Positions 3,464-15,849 of a DNA stretch of 44,090 nt are shown here, piece by piece; positions within the stretch are counted from its first letter, which is position 1; each line of letters begins with the position of its first letter. The stretch is taken from IMG/VR virus record IMGVR_UViG_3300045988_048025. The stretch is one strand, 5' to 3'. The notes below the pieces were generated by a model, which did no database searches, was not told the DNA's origin, and worked only from the letters and a program-made list of their open reading frames with translations. The stretch is from a virus. Lineage: Duplodnaviria; Heunggongvirae; Uroviricota; Caudoviricetes. Position numbers and translations under genes: made by a program.

Positions 3464-5356
3464 ATGCTATTAACTTTAGCACCACAGGGTTTAACTATGA
3501 GCTTACTTACATCACTCATCAGCCATCAGATATGGCTGCAACGCACCGCATCCGGTGAGGTGAAAGACCTCGCACCGTTCATTAAGGAGATGCGGGATGA
3601 AATAAAACGGCAGGTGCTGTTATTCGGTGATGACGGGCGGAGCACTGCGCGACTGAATAAACTGTTACTCGACCTTGAAGAAGCGCTAACCGGACTTACC
3701 GGCGATTGGCAAACAAAGCTGACAGAAGACCTTAAGGAACTGGCGGCATACGAGGCTGAGTGGAACGTAAAGACACTAACCGCCAACGTTAACGCGGAAT
3801 TTGTTACGCCTACCGCCGAACAGGTGTGGGCCGCCGCCGATTTTCAGCCATTATCGTTAAACGACAAGCCTGTTGACTTCACTAAATTGATGTCTGGTTG
3901 GGGTGAAACCGAAGTCGCCCGCCTCGTAACTGGAGTTAAGATGGGCTTTGTACAAGGTCAAACCACACGGCAGATTGTTAAGAATGTCGTAGGCTCTGGT
4001 GGGCTGGCCGACATCTCAGAACGTAACGCGGCTACAGTAATCCGCACCGCGCTGTCTCATGTATCCAACGAAGCCCGTAACGAGACGTACCGCCAGAACG
4101 ACGACATCATCGAGAAATACGAGTGGGTATCAACGCTGGACAGCCGTACCAGTACGATTTGCAGAGCCAGAGACAGGATGACGTGGGAAATCGGTAAAGG
4201 GCCGATGCCTCCGGCCCATCATAATTGCTTACTTGGGGATACTGTAGTATCTACCGGTAGTCCGGTTTCTAACATTTTTAAACGGGCGTACAAAGGCACT
4301 ATAGTCTATGTCTCTACAAGGTCCGGTCGCACCTTGTCTATCACCCCAAACCACCAGGTATTGACTACCAATGGTTGGGTTGCTTCCGGCCTTCTCAATG
4401 TAGGCGACAAGCTCGTGTGCGCTAAGGACTCTGCGCTCTCTCTCAAGCATAAGGAACACAACGTTGTAGCCAAGTTCTCCGATTTGTTTAGTGCGGCTAA
4501 TGTAGCGGTCAATCCTGCGGCGGTCCGTACAAGCCCAACCACCACCGAAGACTTCCACGGCGACGGAACCGACGGCGAAGTCGAGATTGTACTTGTCAAC
4601 CGCCTTTCCTGGGATAAAGTCAAGTCCGGACTGAATAAGCAAATCATTGACAAGGAACTCCCAGTGGCTTCCCGCATTTATGACTCCCTCTCTGGCTTTG
4701 GCTCTGCGAAGCAGTTCAGCATGGTCGGCCTTTCTCCCTCGGACAGCTTCATGCGCCGCGGCGGAGAGAGCGAGGCGCTCCTCGGGAGTAGCTTTAGCCA
4801 TTCTGATAAACATAGCGTCGCTGACACCGCGAATACTAACGCCGTTCTCTCTGAGAACGCGTATGACTGGGTTACACGAAACGCCGATAATCTTTCCGAT
4901 TTCAACTGGTCCGATGCCGTCGGTATAGAGCTTGATGATGTTGTCGATTTGGTCTTTAGTGAAGCTGATTTTTGCGGGCATGTTTATAACCTCGAAAATG
5001 AACAGAACTGGTATCTCGCAAATGGAATTATAGCACATAATTGTCGCTCAACAACCGCGCCAGTAATCAGTTCTGAGTTCGACTTCCTCGATAAAGGCGC
5101 AAAACGCGCGGCTAAGGGTGCGGACGGTGGTATGCAGGTAAGTGCAGACACCACCTATTATGAGTTCCTCAAACAACAACCTGCGTGGTTTCAGGACCAG
5201 GCGCTCGGCCCTGTTCGCGGTAAGATTTTCCGTAACAGCGGTATATCACCGGAAGAGTTTCGCGTAATATCTGTAGATGGTTTCGGGAATCCGCTCACGC
5301 TTAAGCAGATGGCGGAACTCGATAAACGTGTTGCTGATTATCTGAAAGGGGATTAA
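3464..5356 (+). CDS. Head morphogenesis protein (phage Mu F-like / SPP1 gp7-like) interrupted in frame by an intein-like element
   Basis: EWVSTLDSRTSTICRARD...PPAHHN then, after the insert, CRSTTAPV, which resembles the conserved H-x-N-C-R region of Mu F-like proteins; located after the portal. Alternative start ATG 3497. Confidence 0.75.
   Translation: MLLTLAPQGLTMSLLTSLISHQIWLQRTASGEVKDLAPFIKEMRDEIKRQVLLFGDDGRSTARLNKLLLDLEEALTGLTGDWQTKLTEDLKELAAYEAEWNVKTLTANVNAEFVTPTAEQVWAAADFQPLSLNDKPVDFTKLMSGWGETEVARLVTGVKMGFVQGQTTRQIVKNVVGSGGLADISERNAATVIRTALSHVSNEARNETYRQNDDIIEKYEWVSTLDSRTSTICRARDRMTWEIGKGPMPPAHHNCLLGDTVVSTGSPVSNIFKRAYKGTIVYVSTRSGRTLSITPNHQVLTTNGWVASGLLNVGDKLVCAKDSALSLKHKEHNVVAKFSDLFSAANVAVNPAAVRTSPTTTEDFHGDGTDGEVEIVLVNRLSWDKVKSGLNKQIIDKELPVASRIYDSLSGFGSAKQFSMVGLSPSDSFMRRGGESEALLGSSFSHSDKHSVADTANTNAVLSENAYDWVTRNADNLSDFNWSDAVGIELDDVVDLVFSEADFCGHVYNLENEQNWYLANGIIAHNCRSTTAPVISSEFDFLDKGAKRAAKGADGGMQVSADTTYYEFLKQQPAWFQDQALGPVRGKIFRNSGISPEEFRVISVDGFGNPLTLKQMAELDKRVADYLKGD
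4226..5041 (+). mobile_element. Intein-like in-frame insertion (272 codons)
   Basis: Begins with Cys (CLLGDTVVSTG, block A-like), contains ITPNHQVLTTNGW (block B-like TxxH), ends VYNLENEQNWYLANGIIAHN (block F/G-like, terminal HN) followed by +1 Cys; excision would restore HHN-CRST. Confidence 0.75.
4229..4981 (-). CDS. Antisense ORF nested in the intein: putative HTH plus PD-(D/E)xK (Vsr/DUF559-like) nuclease, candidate homing endonuclease
   Basis: ATG at 4981 with GAGG 8 nt upstream; HTH-like IDNIIKLYTDGIGPVEIGKIIGVSCNPVIRVLRENG; nuclease-like core YNLDFAVGSVAVEVFGGGW...DRRRIDRYISRTKQIGELGYNVVFL; protein-like composition while the sense strand here is Ser-rich linker. Track ORF is 4229..5038. 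Confidence 0.4.
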   Translation of the reverse strand: MPAKISFTKDQIDNIIKLYTDGIGPVEIGKIIGVSCNPVIRVLRENGVSIRGVSDAMFIRMAKATPEERLALSAAAHEAVRGRKADHAELLRRAKAREGVINAGSHWEFLVNDLLIQSGLDFIPGKAVDKYNLDFAVGSVAVEVFGGGWACTDRRRIDRYISRTKQIGELGYNVVFLMLERERRVLSAHELVAYIEKAGSNPTIGSQYLVVWGDRQGATGPCRDIDYSAFVRPFKNVRNRTTGRYYSIPK

Positions 5357-11755: not shown

Positions 11756-12168
11756 TGGGCTACTTTGAGGACTTAACCAAAGCATTTGATGTGCCGCTGG
11801 TAGCCTTCGGAACCGCCAACGGCATCAAAGTCGCGCTTGAAAACATCGACGCGCCGACGTCAACCGATACACCGTATCTGGCGAGTTACATGTTACTTGC
11901 GGATACAGAACAGGCAGATTTGTTCTTCACAGAACAACGCTCAGGTGTTTATCAGGTCGACATTAACTACGCATCGGTGAAAGGTAGCGCGCCAATCAAT
12001 AAAATGGCAGACTTACTTAACACGGCGTTTAAAGCAGGTAAGTCATTTTCGCGTAACGACATCTGCGCCGAGGTTCAATCGGTTAGCCTGGGGCCGCTGA
12101 TTGTAGAAAACGGATGGGCCAAACGACCATTGTCAATTAACTTTATTGCATTCACCAAGAGGCTGTGA
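11752..12168 (+). CDS. Tail terminator / tail completion protein (putative)
   Basis: Position immediately upstream of the major tail gene; overlapping starts and stops. Confidence 0.4.
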   Translation: MMGYFEDLTKAFDVPLVAFGTANGIKVALENIDAPTSTDTPYLASYMLLADTEQADLFFTEQRSGVYQVDINYASVKGSAPINKMADLLNTAFKAGKSFSRNDICAEVQSVSLGPLIVENGWAKRPLSINFIAFTKRL

Positions 12169-13337
12169 ATATGGCTACAACTCCTTTTAAGGGCGCGAAT
12201 ACCGCGCAATTCTATGTGGCGGAAGTGACCCCTGGCGTAACACCGACTAACCCGGTCTGGTCGCCGTTGCGTAACACTGGCGGTGTTCCTGCGGTAACCC
12301 GCGATGCGCTGACTTCCAACGAACTCGACGGCAGCAGAGAAACCACATCCATCCGCACCGGTAACAAACAGGTTAGCGGGGAGTACGCCATCGAACTTAG
12401 CTCACGTAGCCAGGATGATTTCCTTGCGGGTGCTATGACTTCTACGTGGCAGGACGGGGTAGAGATTACGGGTGCTGAAATTACGGTCGCTCCAGCAGGT
12501 AAAACATTCACCCGCGCTGCCGGTAGCTTCATTACTGACGGTGTAGAGGTTGGCGACCTGATTGCATTCACCGACTTAACCGGCGACAACGCAAAACCGT
12601 TTATCGTGACCGCGGTTTCTGCTCTTGTAGTTACGGGTGCGGGTATCCAGCACACGCTGACAGCAGAGACTGTAACCACCGACGCTAAAACAGGCGATAA
12701 ATTGGAAACCGGTAACGCATGTAAGACGTTCTCCATCCTGACATGGTTCAAAGGACAGTGCAGGAACCATGACGCGTACATGCTGACCAAAGGCGTGGAA
12801 ATCTCCGGTTTCACCATTGAACAGGCCGTAAACGCGATGGTGACAGGCAGCTTCCCGTTCATCGGTCTGAGTCAGGAAATTCTTTCTGCACTGCCAGCAG
12901 GTTCTGATTTCTCTCAGGTGACGTTTACCGATGAGCCGTTCTCATCCGTAGATGTGTCTGTGTTCGACGGTTCTACGCCGTTGCGTTGCGATACTCTGAC
13001 CATCACCAACGACAACGGTGCTTCCGCGCAGTTCGAACTCGGCAACAGTAGTGTTGCGTTCGTGGAACGTGGCCGCGCAGCTAACACATTCTCCATCTCT
13101 GGTAAGCTGTACGACATGGCGATGATTCAGAAGTTTATCAACGAACAGCAGGTAGAGATTAACTCTATTCTGGCGGGGGTAAACGGGGCTATGTCTTTCA
13201 GCCTGAAACGCGCAGAGCTTACGGCGGTTACGCCAGAAATATCTGGCCCGGAATCAATTACGCAAAGCATAGAAGGACAGTCCACAGGCAATCAATATCA
13301 ATCTTCTATTGTAATACAGCGTATTAGCTACGCGTAA
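12165..13337 (+). CDS. Major tail (tube) protein (putative)
   Basis: 390-aa ORF upstream of the chaperone and tape measure genes; followed by a strong terminator. Confidence 0.55.
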   Translation: MNMATTPFKGANTAQFYVAEVTPGVTPTNPVWSPLRNTGGVPAVTRDALTSNELDGSRETTSIRTGNKQVSGEYAIELSSRSQDDFLAGAMTSTWQDGVEITGAEITVAPAGKTFTRAAGSFITDGVEVGDLIAFTDLTGDNAKPFIVTAVSALVVTGAGIQHTLTAETVTTDAKTGDKLETGNACKTFSILTWFKGQCRNHDAYMLTKGVEISGFTIEQAVNAMVTGSFPFIGLSQEILSALPAGSDFSQVTFTDEPFSSVDVSVFDGSTPLRCDTLTITNDNGASAQFELGNSSVAFVERGRAANTFSISGKLYDMAMIQKFINEQQVEINSILAGVNGAMSFSLKRAELTAVTPEISGPESITQSIEGQSTGNQYQSSIVIQRISYA

Positions 13338-13362: not shown

Positions 13363-13857
13363 CTATTTACCGTGGTTCTCGTGGAACCCTAAATCTCTTT
13401 CAGCAACTCTCCTCGCGGCAACTGCATCTAGTAGCGTTTTAAAGCACCCGATGTGTGTTTTTACGTTATTGTTGAATATCTGTGCGTACCACAACCTTTC
13501 TTTCGCGTTCCAGTAAACCCCGGTTACTCCTGATTTATTATTACGCTGTTTTGACATATTTTTATGGTTTTCCGCATTGGACTTTTTAGCTAAGTTAAGC
13601 GGTCTATTGTTTATTCGGTCATGGTCTAGATGGCCTATTTGATCTGACGAGGTTAGCTTATCGTTAGGATTGTTTAAGTCCCAAGCTATACGGTGCGCCG
13701 CGTGCCATTTACCTCGGAAAAATATCCTTCTATATCCGTCTCGCTGGACAGTACCCGCTTCCTCTCCAGCCTTAGCCCTCCCGGACCGGGTTACTCTGTT
13801 AAATATCCTTCCTGAAATTAAGTCGTATATGAAAAATTCATTCCAGTCCATAATCAT
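13363..13857 (-). CDS. HNH homing endonuclease with AP2 DNA-binding domain
   Basis: HNH region GYRRIFFRGKWHAAHRIAWDL...IGHLDHDRINNRPLNL...NHKN; AP2-like SGVTGVYWNAKERLWYAQIFNNNVKTHIGCFKTLLDA. Confidence 0.7.
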   Translation of the reverse strand: MIMDWNEFFIYDLISGRIFNRVTRSGRAKAGEEAGTVQRDGYRRIFFRGKWHAAHRIAWDLNNPNDKLTSSDQIGHLDHDRINNRPLNLAKKSNAENHKNMSKQRNNKSGVTGVYWNAKERLWYAQIFNNNVKTHIGCFKTLLDAVAARRVAERDLGFHENHGK

Positions 13858-13893
13858 CTCCTGTTGCGATAAGACCCCTTTCGGGGCCTTTTC

Positions 13894-14124
13894 TTACTCA
13901 TCAATGTTACCCCTGTACTCCCGTAACTTCTCCAGGCTTTCAATTGCTTCCGCTAAGTCTGTTCCTGTGTCTTTGTGTCCGCGAAGGCCCATACACAATA
14001 GCTTCTTCAATGCGTGCTGTAACGCTGGGTCCCGTATGTCGAAGGCGCGTAGCACGTCGTAAACGTCAACCGTCATAGTGCTGCCGTGAATGTTTGTCAT
14101 TGTGCGGTTGTATTTATTTGTCAC
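13894..14124 (-). CDS. Hypothetical protein
   Basis: ORF in the inverted island; no domain recognised. Confidence 0.4.
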   Translation of the reverse strand: MTNKYNRTMTNIHGSTMTVDVYDVLRAFDIRDPALQHALKKLLCMGLRGHKDTGTDLAEAIESLEKLREYRGNIDE

Positions 14125-14314
14125 TGTTAACTCTCTTAAATCGGGCTATGCCTGACTCGTTAATGTTGCCTATTTCAAAGAAGCTGCGATATTTAGGCGA
14201 ATACATTCTTACGTCGCCGTTCTCTAGGGTGACCCCTTCATATACCGCACCTACTTCGAATCCATTTTTCTCCGCGTACGGACTCACATCGGTACATTCA
14301 TACATATCTTTCAT
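14114..14314 (-). CDS. Hypothetical protein
   Basis: ORF in the inverted island; overlaps neighbours at start and stop. Confidence 0.4.
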   Translation of the reverse strand: MKDMYECTDVSPYAEKNGFEVGAVYEGVTLENGDVRMYSPKYRSFFEIGNINESGIARFKRVNSDK

Positions 14315-15441
14315 CCCAGCATCTCCGGTGAAATAGTTAAACGTGCGACCTCGCCATATTCGGCGCTATAAGTAATTACATTTGCACTACGGCCCGACAT
14401 CCATCCGCCGCGCGAGGCGTAGGCGTCTTTAGCCGCTAAGGTGCGGTGTTGCTCAACAATCATGTTACGGCTTTCTACAATCTTCTGGTGGTGCAGATGG
14501 CCTACGTGGGCGTAGCTGTAAACACTCTCGCCGAACGCTTTACGGAACTTGGCAATCATTACCGGTTCGATAGCGTCGAATCGCGCCTTATGCCCGTGGT
14601 GAAAGAACAGCGTAGTTTTGCCGTGTTGGACCATCTTGTAAACATCCGGCGACGTATCGACGAACACACGCGGCTCATTGTCGTACAGCGTACTAAACAT
14701 CTCAGCTAACCAAATCATTCCGCTTTCGTCGTGGTTCCCTTGCACGATAAGCAAGCGAACAGATTTATGCTTAACCAGCGCCATGTCAACAACACGGCGT
14801 ACCATACGAATCATGTATCGGACCAGTTTCTGATAACGAGTGTCCGCATCAAGAACATGACCACTCGCTGGCGTAACCGCATCCAGACTATCGAAGTGCG
14901 CGAAGTCACCCAGCAGGTTAATAACCCCAGTTCCTGCATCTGGTGCTTTCTGAAACGCCGCATCGAACCATCGGGAGAACAGGTCTTCCGCAATCTTCAT
15001 ATCCCAGTCGTCGCCGCTCTCGTCAGCCCAGGCCAGCATACCAAGATGGAAATCAGATACCGTGTACAGATTGAGTAGTTTATCATCGCGTTTGGCTCGA
15101 GTCGCTTTAACCGGCGCAACTGGCGTAATCTCCGACTTCATTCCTTCGATCACGGCTTTCATTAACTCGACCTGACGTTCGGCGTCGGTGTCTGTCTTAA
15201 CCCATTGCAACTTAGTGTTGCCGAACTCGTCCACCAGTGACGACGTTCCTTTAATTTTGTAGCCGTCCGGGACAAGATGGCTAACGTCACGACCGTGACC
15301 TACGCCTTTCTTCGCCAGCTTCGCTTTACGGATACGAATAACTCGGTCTGAGATGCCGTATTTACGGGATATGTCGATAATCTTTGTTCCGGCGTTCAAT
15401 TCTTCCTGTAACTGTTCGTCGGTTATTTTCTTCCGGGCCAT
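14311..15441 (-). CDS. N-terminal HTH domain fused to calcineurin-like metallophosphoesterase
   Basis: HTH-like ISRKYGISDRVIRIRKAKL; phosphoesterase motifs SDFHLG, LLGDFAHFD, GNHDE, HHGH, GHLHH. Confidence 0.6.
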   Translation of the reverse strand: MARKKITDEQLQEELNAGTKIIDISRKYGISDRVIRIRKAKLAKKGVGHGRDVSHLVPDGYKIKGTSSLVDEFGNTKLQWVKTDTDAERQVELMKAVIEGMKSEITPVAPVKATRAKRDDKLLNLYTVSDFHLGMLAWADESGDDWDMKIAEDLFSRWFDAAFQKAPDAGTGVINLLGDFAHFDSLDAVTPASGHVLDADTRYQKLVRYMIRMVRRVVDMALVKHKSVRLLIVQGNHDESGMIWLAEMFSTLYDNEPRVFVDTSPDVYKMVQHGKTTLFFHHGHKARFDAIEPVMIAKFRKAFGESVYSYAHVGHLHHQKIVESRNMIVEQHRTLAAKDAYASRGGWMSGRSANVITYSAEYGEVARLTISPEMLG

Positions 15442-15479
15442 GCTTACTTCCTCGTGTTTAGGATTTGTCCTATACTAGC

Positions 15480-15671
15480 TCACTTCTCTTTGACATTCGA
15501 GTTGCAAGCCCAGATTAAAATAAATACCCACGGCAGCAGAACCCAGCCGAGAAACAGATTAGCCATGAATATCGCCAGTTTCGCTTTATGTCCGCGCATA
15601 TGGGCCACTAAAAACGGGATAAAATAAACTAAAACGATAATGATTAAGAAGAACATAGTAATACCTGTCAT
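15480..15671 (-). CDS. Small membrane protein (two predicted TM helices)
   Basis: ATG at 15671 with RBS aggagc; MTGITMFFLIIIVLVYFIPFLVAH...LFLGWVLLPWVFILIWA. Track ORF extends to 15809. Confidence 0.45.
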   Translation of the reverse strand: MTGITMFFLIIIVLVYFIPFLVAHMRGHKAKLAIFMANLFLGWVLLPWVFILIWACNSNVKEK

Positions 15672-15712
15672 GGTGTAGCTCCTGTTTGAGTTAACATTGT
15701 TGGTGTAAGTGA

Positions 15713-15741
15713 ATAGTATCCTATTATGTTGGGGTGCGCAA
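15713..15741 (-). promoter_or_regulatory. Sigma70-like promoter for the inverted island (-35 TTGCGC, 17 bp, -10 TACTAT) with operator-like motif
   Basis: Same architecture as 6126..6154 and the same leader ACACCAACAA. Confidence 0.4.
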
Positions 15742-15849
15742 GTAATGTGATAGAATAATTTTGCGCCTAGTGTCGCACACGAAAAGCGGGTGGTTCCCGT
15801 CTGGCGCATTTACCATTAACCTGTAACCTCTTAACCAAAGGATTAAAGA

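Follow-up and report, generated by a model that had tools for sequence, protein, structure and literature searches.

A helix-turn-helix metallophosphoesterase encoded beside the tail genes of a Kagunavirus coliphage: a possible DNA-tethered nuclease

Introduction

Which substrate does a phage enzyme serve when a DNA-binding domain is joined to a metallophosphoesterase (MPE) core, and what would such an enzyme do during infection? The question is raised by IMG/VR virus record IMGVR_UViG_3300045988_048025, a DNA of 44,090 nucleotides that was analysed whole and is referred to below as the window. It is the genome of a Kagunavirus (Guernseyvirinae) coliphage, and Escherichia phage vB-Eco-KMB36 (KMB36) is 95.6% identical to it across the 3 kb surrounding the gene considered here. 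This gene (14311..15441, minus strand) is a complete open reading frame (ORF) of 376 codons plus stop, which begins with ATG and belongs to PHROG 704; its product, here called HTH-MPE, carries an N-terminal helix-turn-helix (HTH) domain ahead of the MPE domain, an architecture that is near certain.

The reading preferred here, to which we give a probability of about 0.45, is that HTH-MPE is a DNA-tethered Mre11-like nuclease engaged in host-DNA breakdown and nucleotide salvage or in end processing. Nuclease action on DNA, taken by itself, is on balance probable, and a specific role in nucleotide salvage is proposed tentatively. From fold and gene context we infer the DNA substrate, the nuclease activity, the timing of expression, and the salvage role.

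Domain architecture and conservation of HTH-MPE

A preliminary description of the window had reported an HTH domain fused to a calcineurin-like MPE at 14311-15441, with no strand given. The fusion and its coordinates hold, the strand is minus, and all the peptide strings quoted as evidence occur in the 376-residue translation; the motif strings among them are far beyond chance. Read from the sequence, a Shine-Dalgarno element (GAGGAAG; 15447..15453, minus strand) lies 5 nt before the ATG. The ratio of nonsynonymous to synonymous substitution rates (dN/dS) is 0.02-0.06 against five Kagunavirus/Jerseyvirus orthologues, and the gene is thus under strong purifying selection. Constraint is strongest in the MPE part (dN/dS 0.021), and the N-terminal 50 residues evolve fastest (dN 0.375 vs 0.028 in the MPE domain). 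A pseudogene or decaying enzyme was considered and ruled out, since dN/dS in the MPE domain is 0.02 and every motif is intact.

The MPE catalytic domain (residues 119-376; 14314..15087, minus strand) contains all five motifs of the calcineurin-like superfamily (DxH / GD / GNH[DE] / H / GHxH), and their conservation was assessed in a family alignment of 54 homologues that are 31-50% identical to the window protein. Motif I is SDFHLG (residues 129-134; 15040..15057, minus strand), with D130 and H132 invariant; motif II is GDFAHFD (residues 178-184; 14890..14910, minus strand), with G178 and D179 invariant and H182 and D184 conserved in at least 90%; and motif III is GNHDE (residues 235-239; 14725..14739, minus strand), with N236 and H237 invariant. 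Motif V is GHLHH (residues 314-318; 14488..14502, minus strand), with G314 and H317 invariant and H315 conserved in at least 90%. These four strings had been put forward earlier as a complete set of MPE motifs, and they are indeed conserved across the 54 homologues; motif IV, absent from that list, is provided by HHGH (residues 281-284; 14590..14601, minus strand), with H282 invariant. The seven metal ligands and the motif III histidine are all invariant or at least 90% conserved in these diverged homologues, and the conserved residues account for every metal ligand that an MPE requires.

Individual database searches are less sensitive. The window protein scores below the Pfam cut-offs for Metallophos_2 (PF12850; 22.2 vs 27 bits) and Metallophos (PF00149; 18.7 vs 21.5 bits), which is a matter of sensitivity, because PF00149 and PF12850 are matched at E<0.01 by 15 and 8 of the 54 homologues, respectively. 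An NCBIfam search with the window protein gave no matches, and a single-sequence search of the PDB returned only spurious ones (STIV ATPase). Since there is no direct Pfam match, the domain calls depend on the family profile and on the structure model.

An AlphaFold2 model built on the 54-homologue alignment has a mean predicted local distance difference test score (pLDDT) of 91.3 and a predicted template modelling score (pTM) of 0.76; a single-sequence AlphaFold run (pLDDT 42.6) was set aside. The model consists of three N-terminal helices, a linker, a β-hairpin with a helix, and the MPE core, which has the β-sandwich MPE fold and pLDDT values mostly >96 over residues 119-376. Motif spacing incompatible with this fold, which had been named beforehand as grounds for dropping the assignment, is not seen in the model.

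The three N-terminal helices (residues 8-16, 21-28, and 32-44; pLDDT 83-94) form a predicted HTH of the FixJ/LuxR/sigma-70 region 4 type (residues 1-46; 15304..15441, minus strand), called from the AlphaFold2 model and from profile matches. The segment originally quoted as HTH-like, ISRKYGISDRVIRIRKAKL, corresponds to residues 23-41, and the predicted recognition helix is basic (DRVIRIRKAKLAK). Compared with solved domains, a family profile restricted to the N-terminal ~50 residues matches FixJ (7.2e-6), DesR (1.9e-5), the IS5376 transposase HTH (3.3e-5), SigC region 4 (6.8e-5), NarL (1.7e-4), and RhlR (3.6e-4). The orthologue of the T1-like phage KP36 exceeds the Pfam threshold for Sigma70_r4_2 (26.6 vs 25.7 bits), and among the 54 members scanned individually Pfam reports Sigma70_r4_2 in eight, HTH_23 in seven, HTH_8 in five, and GerE in four (best E 1.5e-9). 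The window protein alone has no HTH match in Pfam, its own HTH apparently being too diverged to score. The HTH is thus supported at family level, and it is also found in copies from alphaproteobacterial prophages; because of the profile matches, the Pfam matches of homologues, and these prophage copies, the HTH-MPE fusion is judged to be a conserved trait of the family. The FixJ/NarL/LuxR and sigma-70 region 4 domains that the profile matches (E 7e-6 to 4e-4) differ from the N-terminus of HTH-MPE in that three helices are predicted here instead of a tetrahelical bundle, with no receiver or sigma context.

The HTH is followed by a linker (residues 45-60; 15262-15307, minus strand) that is probably flexible, being modelled with low confidence (pLDDT 54-64), and then by a family-specific module (residues 61-104; 15130..15261, minus strand), seen in model and alignment, in which two strands form a β-hairpin (61-85) and precede a long helix (87-104). 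Within the hairpin G74 is invariant and W80 nearly so across the 54-homologue alignment. Most homologues keep a linker motif, G(W/Y)SPEHDM(T)x(x)VPDGF, which is degenerate in the window protein (GVGHGRDVSHLVPDGY); such a motif could serve as a docking site for a partner protein.

Distribution and existing annotation

HTH-MPE is already catalogued as a very common phage family and is not an oddity of this genome; an identical protein has been deposited, namely the product of Escherichia phage fBC-Eco01 (100% identity). The match to PHROG 704, named 'DNA repair exonuclease', is full-length (E 1.7e-165; residues 4-375 on positions 2-389/390), and PHROG 704, or T1p16, is the protein's own family, with no difference between them and a name given by homology. 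An exhaustive HMMER scan recovered 4,648 clusters at 50% identity, 1,157 of them at E<=1e-30 and most with members of 370-420 residues, and tblastn found HTH-MPE in 2,040 of 50,697 phage records. Carriers include Guernseyvirinae, Drexlerviridae (as 'T1p16'), SP6-like podoviruses such as Era103, phages of Vibrio, Rhodobacter, and Campylobacter and, more weakly, of Flavobacterium; prophage-like copies, with lysis genes, RusA, and terminase as neighbours, are found in genomes of alpha- and gammaproteobacteria. Related loci were searched for with a 12-sequence subset of the 54-sequence alignment.

Annotations in use range from 'metallophosphoesterase' and 'DNA repair exonuclease' to 'DNA polymerase II small subunit', 'HTH-type regulator/nuclease SbcD', and 'Sigma70_r4_2 domain-containing protein'. 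Annotators have noticed the domain fusion before, and the window itself adds nothing new in this respect. The fBC-Eco01 protein was called a polymerase II small subunit purely on similarity (PMC9825357). A pangenome study found an exonuclease-holin-endolysin-spanin module in 508 of 522 Drexlerviridae, with 'DNA repair exonuclease' as a persistent gene; its commonest downstream genes were those for PNK and a deoxynucleoside monophosphate (dNMP) kinase, proposed to enhance nucleotide supply (PMC13164509).

Fold relatives and the motif II histidine

By fold, HTH-MPE is an MPE whose model lies closest to the nuclease branch of the superfamily, and the fold leaves its substrate class unsettled. The small subunit DP1 of DNA polymerase D (PolD) is the top fold match of the model. 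Staphylococcus aureus SbcD scores 15.1 and Mre11 15.0, followed by LpxH (13.9), MJ0936 (13.6), and other Mre11/SbcD entries (13.1-13.5), with the PPP protein phosphatases at ~9. Foldseek likewise places DP1 first (3.9e-8), ahead of Thermotoga maritima Mre11 (9.8e-8) and the cAMP phosphodiesterase Rv0805 (1.2e-7), and small-molecule phosphodiesterases thus come nearly equal in score to the nuclease folds.

The link to Mre11 is insignificant at the level of sequence (profile E 0.7-2 vs Mre11 chains), and when the MPE-domain profile was aligned with single sequences by hhalign, the probabilities were 2% for Escherichia coli SbcD, 8% for CpdA, and 0.4% for LpxH, with isolated motifs only, which does not separate the substrate classes. 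In the alignment with T. maritima Mre11 (E ~1), tDlHlg of motif I is set against SDWHLG and GDflH of motif II against GDLLH, the GDFAHFD of the window protein standing opposite GDLLHS. The GD-x-x-H form of motif II that is typical of Mre11/SbcD is present in HTH-MPE as GDFAH, its histidine being the highly conserved H182. In Mre11, the histidine three residues past GD is associated with nuclease function.

Gene neighbourhoods in related phages

In the Kagunavirus fEg-Eco06 the corresponding slot encodes, in order, Imm, the MPE, a PNKP-type HAD 3'-phosphatase (HAD_PNKP), and a T4 gp1-like dNMP kinase. The trio of MPE, HAD_PNKP, and dNMP kinase recurs in T1-like KP36, where the lysis cassette follows immediately, and in SP6-like Era103, where it stands after a gp6-like exonuclease and endonuclease VII. 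Neighbours were counted at 112 loci, in genomes and viral contigs, within four genes on either side. The most frequent are the dNMP kinase (19 loci) and HAD_PNKP (12), then endolysin (10), DUF6378-like proteins (8), DUF3310 (8), antiterminator Q (7), dGTP_diPhyd_N (6), NinG (5), an HD-domain protein (4), and RusA (3); HNH endonucleases fall into an AP2-type cluster (7) and a second cluster (6).

Neither the PNKP phosphatase nor the dNMP kinase was found anywhere in the window by tblastn. When the window is compared with a related locus that carries these genes (L041, 4628-5670), homology ends ~10 nt past the MPE stop codon, and the 66-residue ORF that follows in the window still begins with MKD, the three codons that open the phosphatase gene. 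A cassette swap has taken place directly downstream of the MPE gene, in which HAD_PNKP and the dNMP kinase were replaced in the window by a cargo of three ORFs.

In lambdoid prophages the HTH-MPE gene has RusA or NinG on its upstream side and antiterminator Q on its downstream side, a slot that in lambda is occupied by ninI, just upstream of Q. The possibility that HTH-MPE is a late-gene regulator replacing Q was ruled out, as Q adjoins HTH-MPE in these prophages.

Proposed role and competing explanations

The preliminary description left the function open between a nuclease, a DNA-targeted phosphatase, and a signalling-nucleotide hydrolase. This stays the honest position, with fold and gene context leaning towards a nuclease. 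The nuclease reading is drawn from the intact two-metal chemistry, the nuclease-like fold, the tethered DNA-binding domain, and the placement with DNA and nucleotide metabolism in four unrelated genome architectures. A part in host-DNA breakdown and salvage is suggested by the linkage to the dNMP kinase and 3'-phosphatase and by the behaviour of T1 and TLS, which degrade the host chromosome and reuse its nucleotides through genes that have not been identified (PMC11447400); a small and unrelated mycobacteriophage MPE degrades host DNA (PMC12287305). In such a mechanism HTH-MPE would be a two-metal phosphodiesterase of the Mre11/SbcD/PolD-DP1-like fold, held on or loaded onto DNA by its short HTH on a flexible linker and acting on its own as a DNA nuclease, without a Rad50/SbcC partner. 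It would be expressed with early or middle DNA-metabolism genes, here from an own leftward promoter of an island within the tail operon, and its job would be the breakdown of host or other non-replicating DNA or the trimming of DNA ends. In many relatives the deoxynucleotides may then be reused by way of the linked PNKP-type 3'-phosphatase and T4 gp1-like dNMP kinase; the window phage, having lost both, would depend on host kinases.

Several observations weigh against the DNA-tethered nuclease. Residue 376, the last of the MPE core, is also the last of the protein, which so has no Mre11-type C-terminal capping domain, and no Rad50/SbcC ATPase gene is found in the KMB36 annotation or next to the MPE gene at the loci examined. 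KMB36 already has a separate annotated nuclease, and most of the recurrent neighbours (dNMP kinase, HAD phosphatase, HD, and MazG-like dGTP_diPhyd_N) act on mononucleotides and not on polymers. Promoter-like sites are no more numerous than expected from shuffling, which bears on the proposed expression of the island from its own promoter. The searched literature yielded no functional study of any HTH-MPE member: papers on the Kagunavirus and Drexlerviridae (metallo)phosphoesterase, on T1 gene 2.5, and on escape mutants contain none, and phage Tn-seq and CRISPRi-ART papers make no mention of Kagunavirus, Drexlerviridae, Guernseyvirinae, T1-like phages, or phosphoesterase.

The same fold evidence would equally suit an enzyme that processes ends in recombination or replication, working like Mre11 on phage DNA ends, hairpins, or blocked termini in recombination-dependent replication or on concatemers. 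The repeated neighbours RusA, NinG, endonuclease VII, and VRR-NUC, which are Holliday-junction resolvases and recombination genes, speak for such a role, as does the persistence of a core gene in Drexlerviridae, which fits housekeeping (PMC13164509). This explanation is nevertheless unlikely: it too has to do without the Rad50/SbcC partner and the capping domain, relatives annotate a separate nuclease, T1-like phages carry Erf/RecE-type recombination genes (PMC11447400), and the linkage to the dNMP kinase is left unexplained. Distinctly unlikely is a small-molecule phosphodiesterase or pyrophosphatase that acts on cyclic signalling nucleotides, NAD+, dNDP/dNTP, or (p)ppGpp in counter-defence or pool remodelling and uses its HTH for autoregulation or localisation. 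In fold, Rv0805, GpdQ, LpxH, and YfcE stand only slightly further off than the nucleases, the genes nearby encode enzymes of mononucleotides (dNMP kinase, HAD, HD, MazG-like), and the gene is found here next to a superinfection-immunity gene, in an accessory island that is variable; moreover, pairs of calcineurin-like and HAD proteins hydrolyse NAD+/dNTPs in the host Metis/PUA-Cal-HAD systems (bioRxiv 10.1101/2025.11.05.686725; 10.64898/2026.01.15.699771). A DNA-binding domain kept throughout the family is, however, hard to reconcile with an enzyme for soluble metabolites, the motif II histidine is common to Mre11, PADLOC anti-phage defence profiles give no match to the protein at E<=0.1, and persistence in 508/522 Drexlerviridae is unlike the patchy occurrence of anti-defence genes (PMC13164509).

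Three unrelated groups of phages encode HAD_PNKP (E 4.5e-20) and then a P-loop kinase directly after the MPE, and in Era103 a ligase comes two genes later, an arrangement that recalls end healing of RNA or DNA; the MPE domain of bacterial Pnkp reportedly takes part in Pnkp/Hen1 RNA repair (work from the Shuman laboratory). HTH-MPE might then be a 2',3'-cyclic phosphodiesterase or 3'-phosphatase that, together with the PNKP-type phosphatase and kinase, repairs tRNA or DNA cut by host nucleases. This is very unlikely, because the kinase belongs with the dNMP kinases of the T4 gp1 type (Pfam DNMK in alphaproteobacterial copies, 1DEK similarity in annotation) and not with the polynucleotide kinases, cyclic and 3'-phosphate ends are already dealt with by the T4-type HAD phosphatase, the MPE gene persists without phosphatase and kinase, as in the window, and the HTH points to duplex DNA. 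The remaining candidates are a protein phosphatase or regulator like lambda NinI, for which the slot just upstream of Q in lambdoid prophages speaks, and a proofreading 'DNA polymerase II small subunit', for which the top fold match to DP1 and the fBC-Eco01 annotation speak (PMC9825357). Both are extremely unlikely: HTH-MPE lacks the PPP phosphatase signature of the lambda NinI type (GDxHG / GDxVDRG / GNHE), the only annotated polymerase is of the Pol I type, and the N-terminal region consists of HTH, hairpin, and helix with no OB-fold, so that the DP1-type annotation is a transfer at the level of fold.

The accessory island in the window

HTH-MPE is encoded in a leftward island between the tail tube gene (12165-13337, plus strand) and the tail assembly chaperones (15850 onward, plus strand), which comprises, in order, an Imm_superinfect membrane protein, HTH-MPE, a 66-residue ORFan, a DUF6378-like ORF of 76 residues, and an HNH endonuclease. 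A virion or tail protein was ruled out for HTH-MPE, which is encoded on the strand opposite to the tail operon and has relatives in DNA-metabolism regions. The Imm_superinfect protein, which heads the island upstream of HTH-MPE (15480..15671, minus strand; PF14373 E 3e-13; PHROG 1039), has 63 residues as annotated in relatives, and its longest ORF reaches 15809. At some Jerseyvirus-like loci (e.g. L053) the same slot is taken by a different ORF of ~109 residues, whose N-terminus is hydrophobic and resembles a signal peptide.

The intergenic region (15672-15849, 178 bp) that separates the island from the divergently oriented tail assembly chaperone gene is 89% conserved among aligned Kagunavirus loci and carries a (C/T)ATAAT -10 element and small hairpins at ~15762-15779 and ~15785-15805. 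The candidate sigma-70 promoter of the island is ATCACA-17-CATAAT (15723..15751, minus strand), with TATAAT in most relatives, and from these elements the island might be expressed early and independently.

The variable cargo downstream of HTH-MPE occupies 13363..14314 (minus strand). The start of the 66-residue ORFan (14114-14314, minus strand) overlaps the MPE stop codon (ATGA); this ORF has no match in PHROG or Pfam and occurs only in 26 Kagunavirus records, each time adjoining the MPE gene. The 76-residue ORF (13894-14124, minus strand; phrog_2452 E 1.5e-36) matches only the C-terminal ~70 residues of PHROG profiles of 210-250 residues and clusters with DUF6378-like proteins that are also MPE neighbours in unrelated phages; the ORF represents a truncated domain or else a module in its own right. 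The HNH endonuclease gene (13363-13857, minus strand) completes the cargo. Elsewhere in the genome, the record of KMB36 (L040, 2784-4754) has a 'minor head protein with inserted intein' for the window ORF at 3464-5356 (plus strand), and several HNH homing endonucleases are scattered through the same record, one beside DNA polymerase I. The intein and homing endonucleases of KMB36 suggest heavy traffic of mobile elements in these genomes.

Significance and comparison with known systems

The HTH-MPE family is among the most widespread phage enzymes lacking experimental characterisation and is nearly core in T1-like phages, and it is a credible candidate for a classical function still without a gene, the degradation of the host chromosome by T1 and TLS (PMC11447400). 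A broader proposal, which we regard as doubtful, is that T1p16/PHROG 704 is the long-unidentified nuclease with which T1-like phages, Kagunavirus, and related virulent phages reduce the host chromosome to mononucleotides, that it forms with the phosphatase and kinase a portable 'degrade-and-recycle' cassette, and that its products, including m6dAMP, are sensed by Metis/PUA-Cal-HAD. Were HTH-MPE a host-chromosome nuclease, a decades-old gap would be closed and the source of nucleotide danger signals for newly described defences identified; were it a small-molecule hydrolase, a very common enzyme of counter-defence or pool remodelling would have been mislabelled as a repair exonuclease.

Among known systems, Mre11/SbcD (T. 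maritima 2q8u/4o43, S. aureus 7dog, E. coli 6s6v) resembles HTH-MPE in fold, with sequence similarity that is not significant (E ~1), and lacks both the N-terminal HTH and the β-hairpin module. The archaeal PolD small subunit DP1 (5ihe), a 3'-5' proofreading exonuclease, is 12-13% identical to HTH-MPE, which differs from it in having no DP2 partner, OB-fold, or polymerase context. Lambda NinI (lambda protein phosphatase) shares with HTH-MPE the MPE superfamily and, in lambdoid prophages, the same slot in the nin region upstream of Q.

The host systems Metis (MisA/MisB) and PUA-Cal-HAD also combine a calcineurin-like protein with a HAD phosphatase and are tied to nucleotides from phage-driven breakdown of host DNA; unlike HTH-MPE, which has no PADLOC match, they serve host defence, with a PUA sensor and NAD+/dNTP substrates. 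The pairing of MPE and HAD in phages (KP36, L038; Era103, L039; and L041) mirrors this make-up. MisB, the HAD protein of Metis, degrades basal m6dAMP (bioRxiv 10.1101/2025.11.05.686725; 10.64898/2026.01.15.699771), and it is pure speculation that a phage HAD phosphatase might blunt the m6dAMP signal of Metis.

For the DNA-tethered nuclease itself, the functional precedent is the MPE Gp48 of mycobacteriophage A10ZJ24 (motif I aspartate D10, mutated motif histidine H175). Gp48 belongs to a phage of another host phylum, and its likeness to HTH-MPE is at the level of the superfamily; because its motif I aspartate already stands at residue 10, it has no N-terminal HTH and is apparently much shorter. 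Expressed early, Gp48 acts as a phosphodiesterase, breaks down the DNA of its host, and is toxic to it (PMC12287305).

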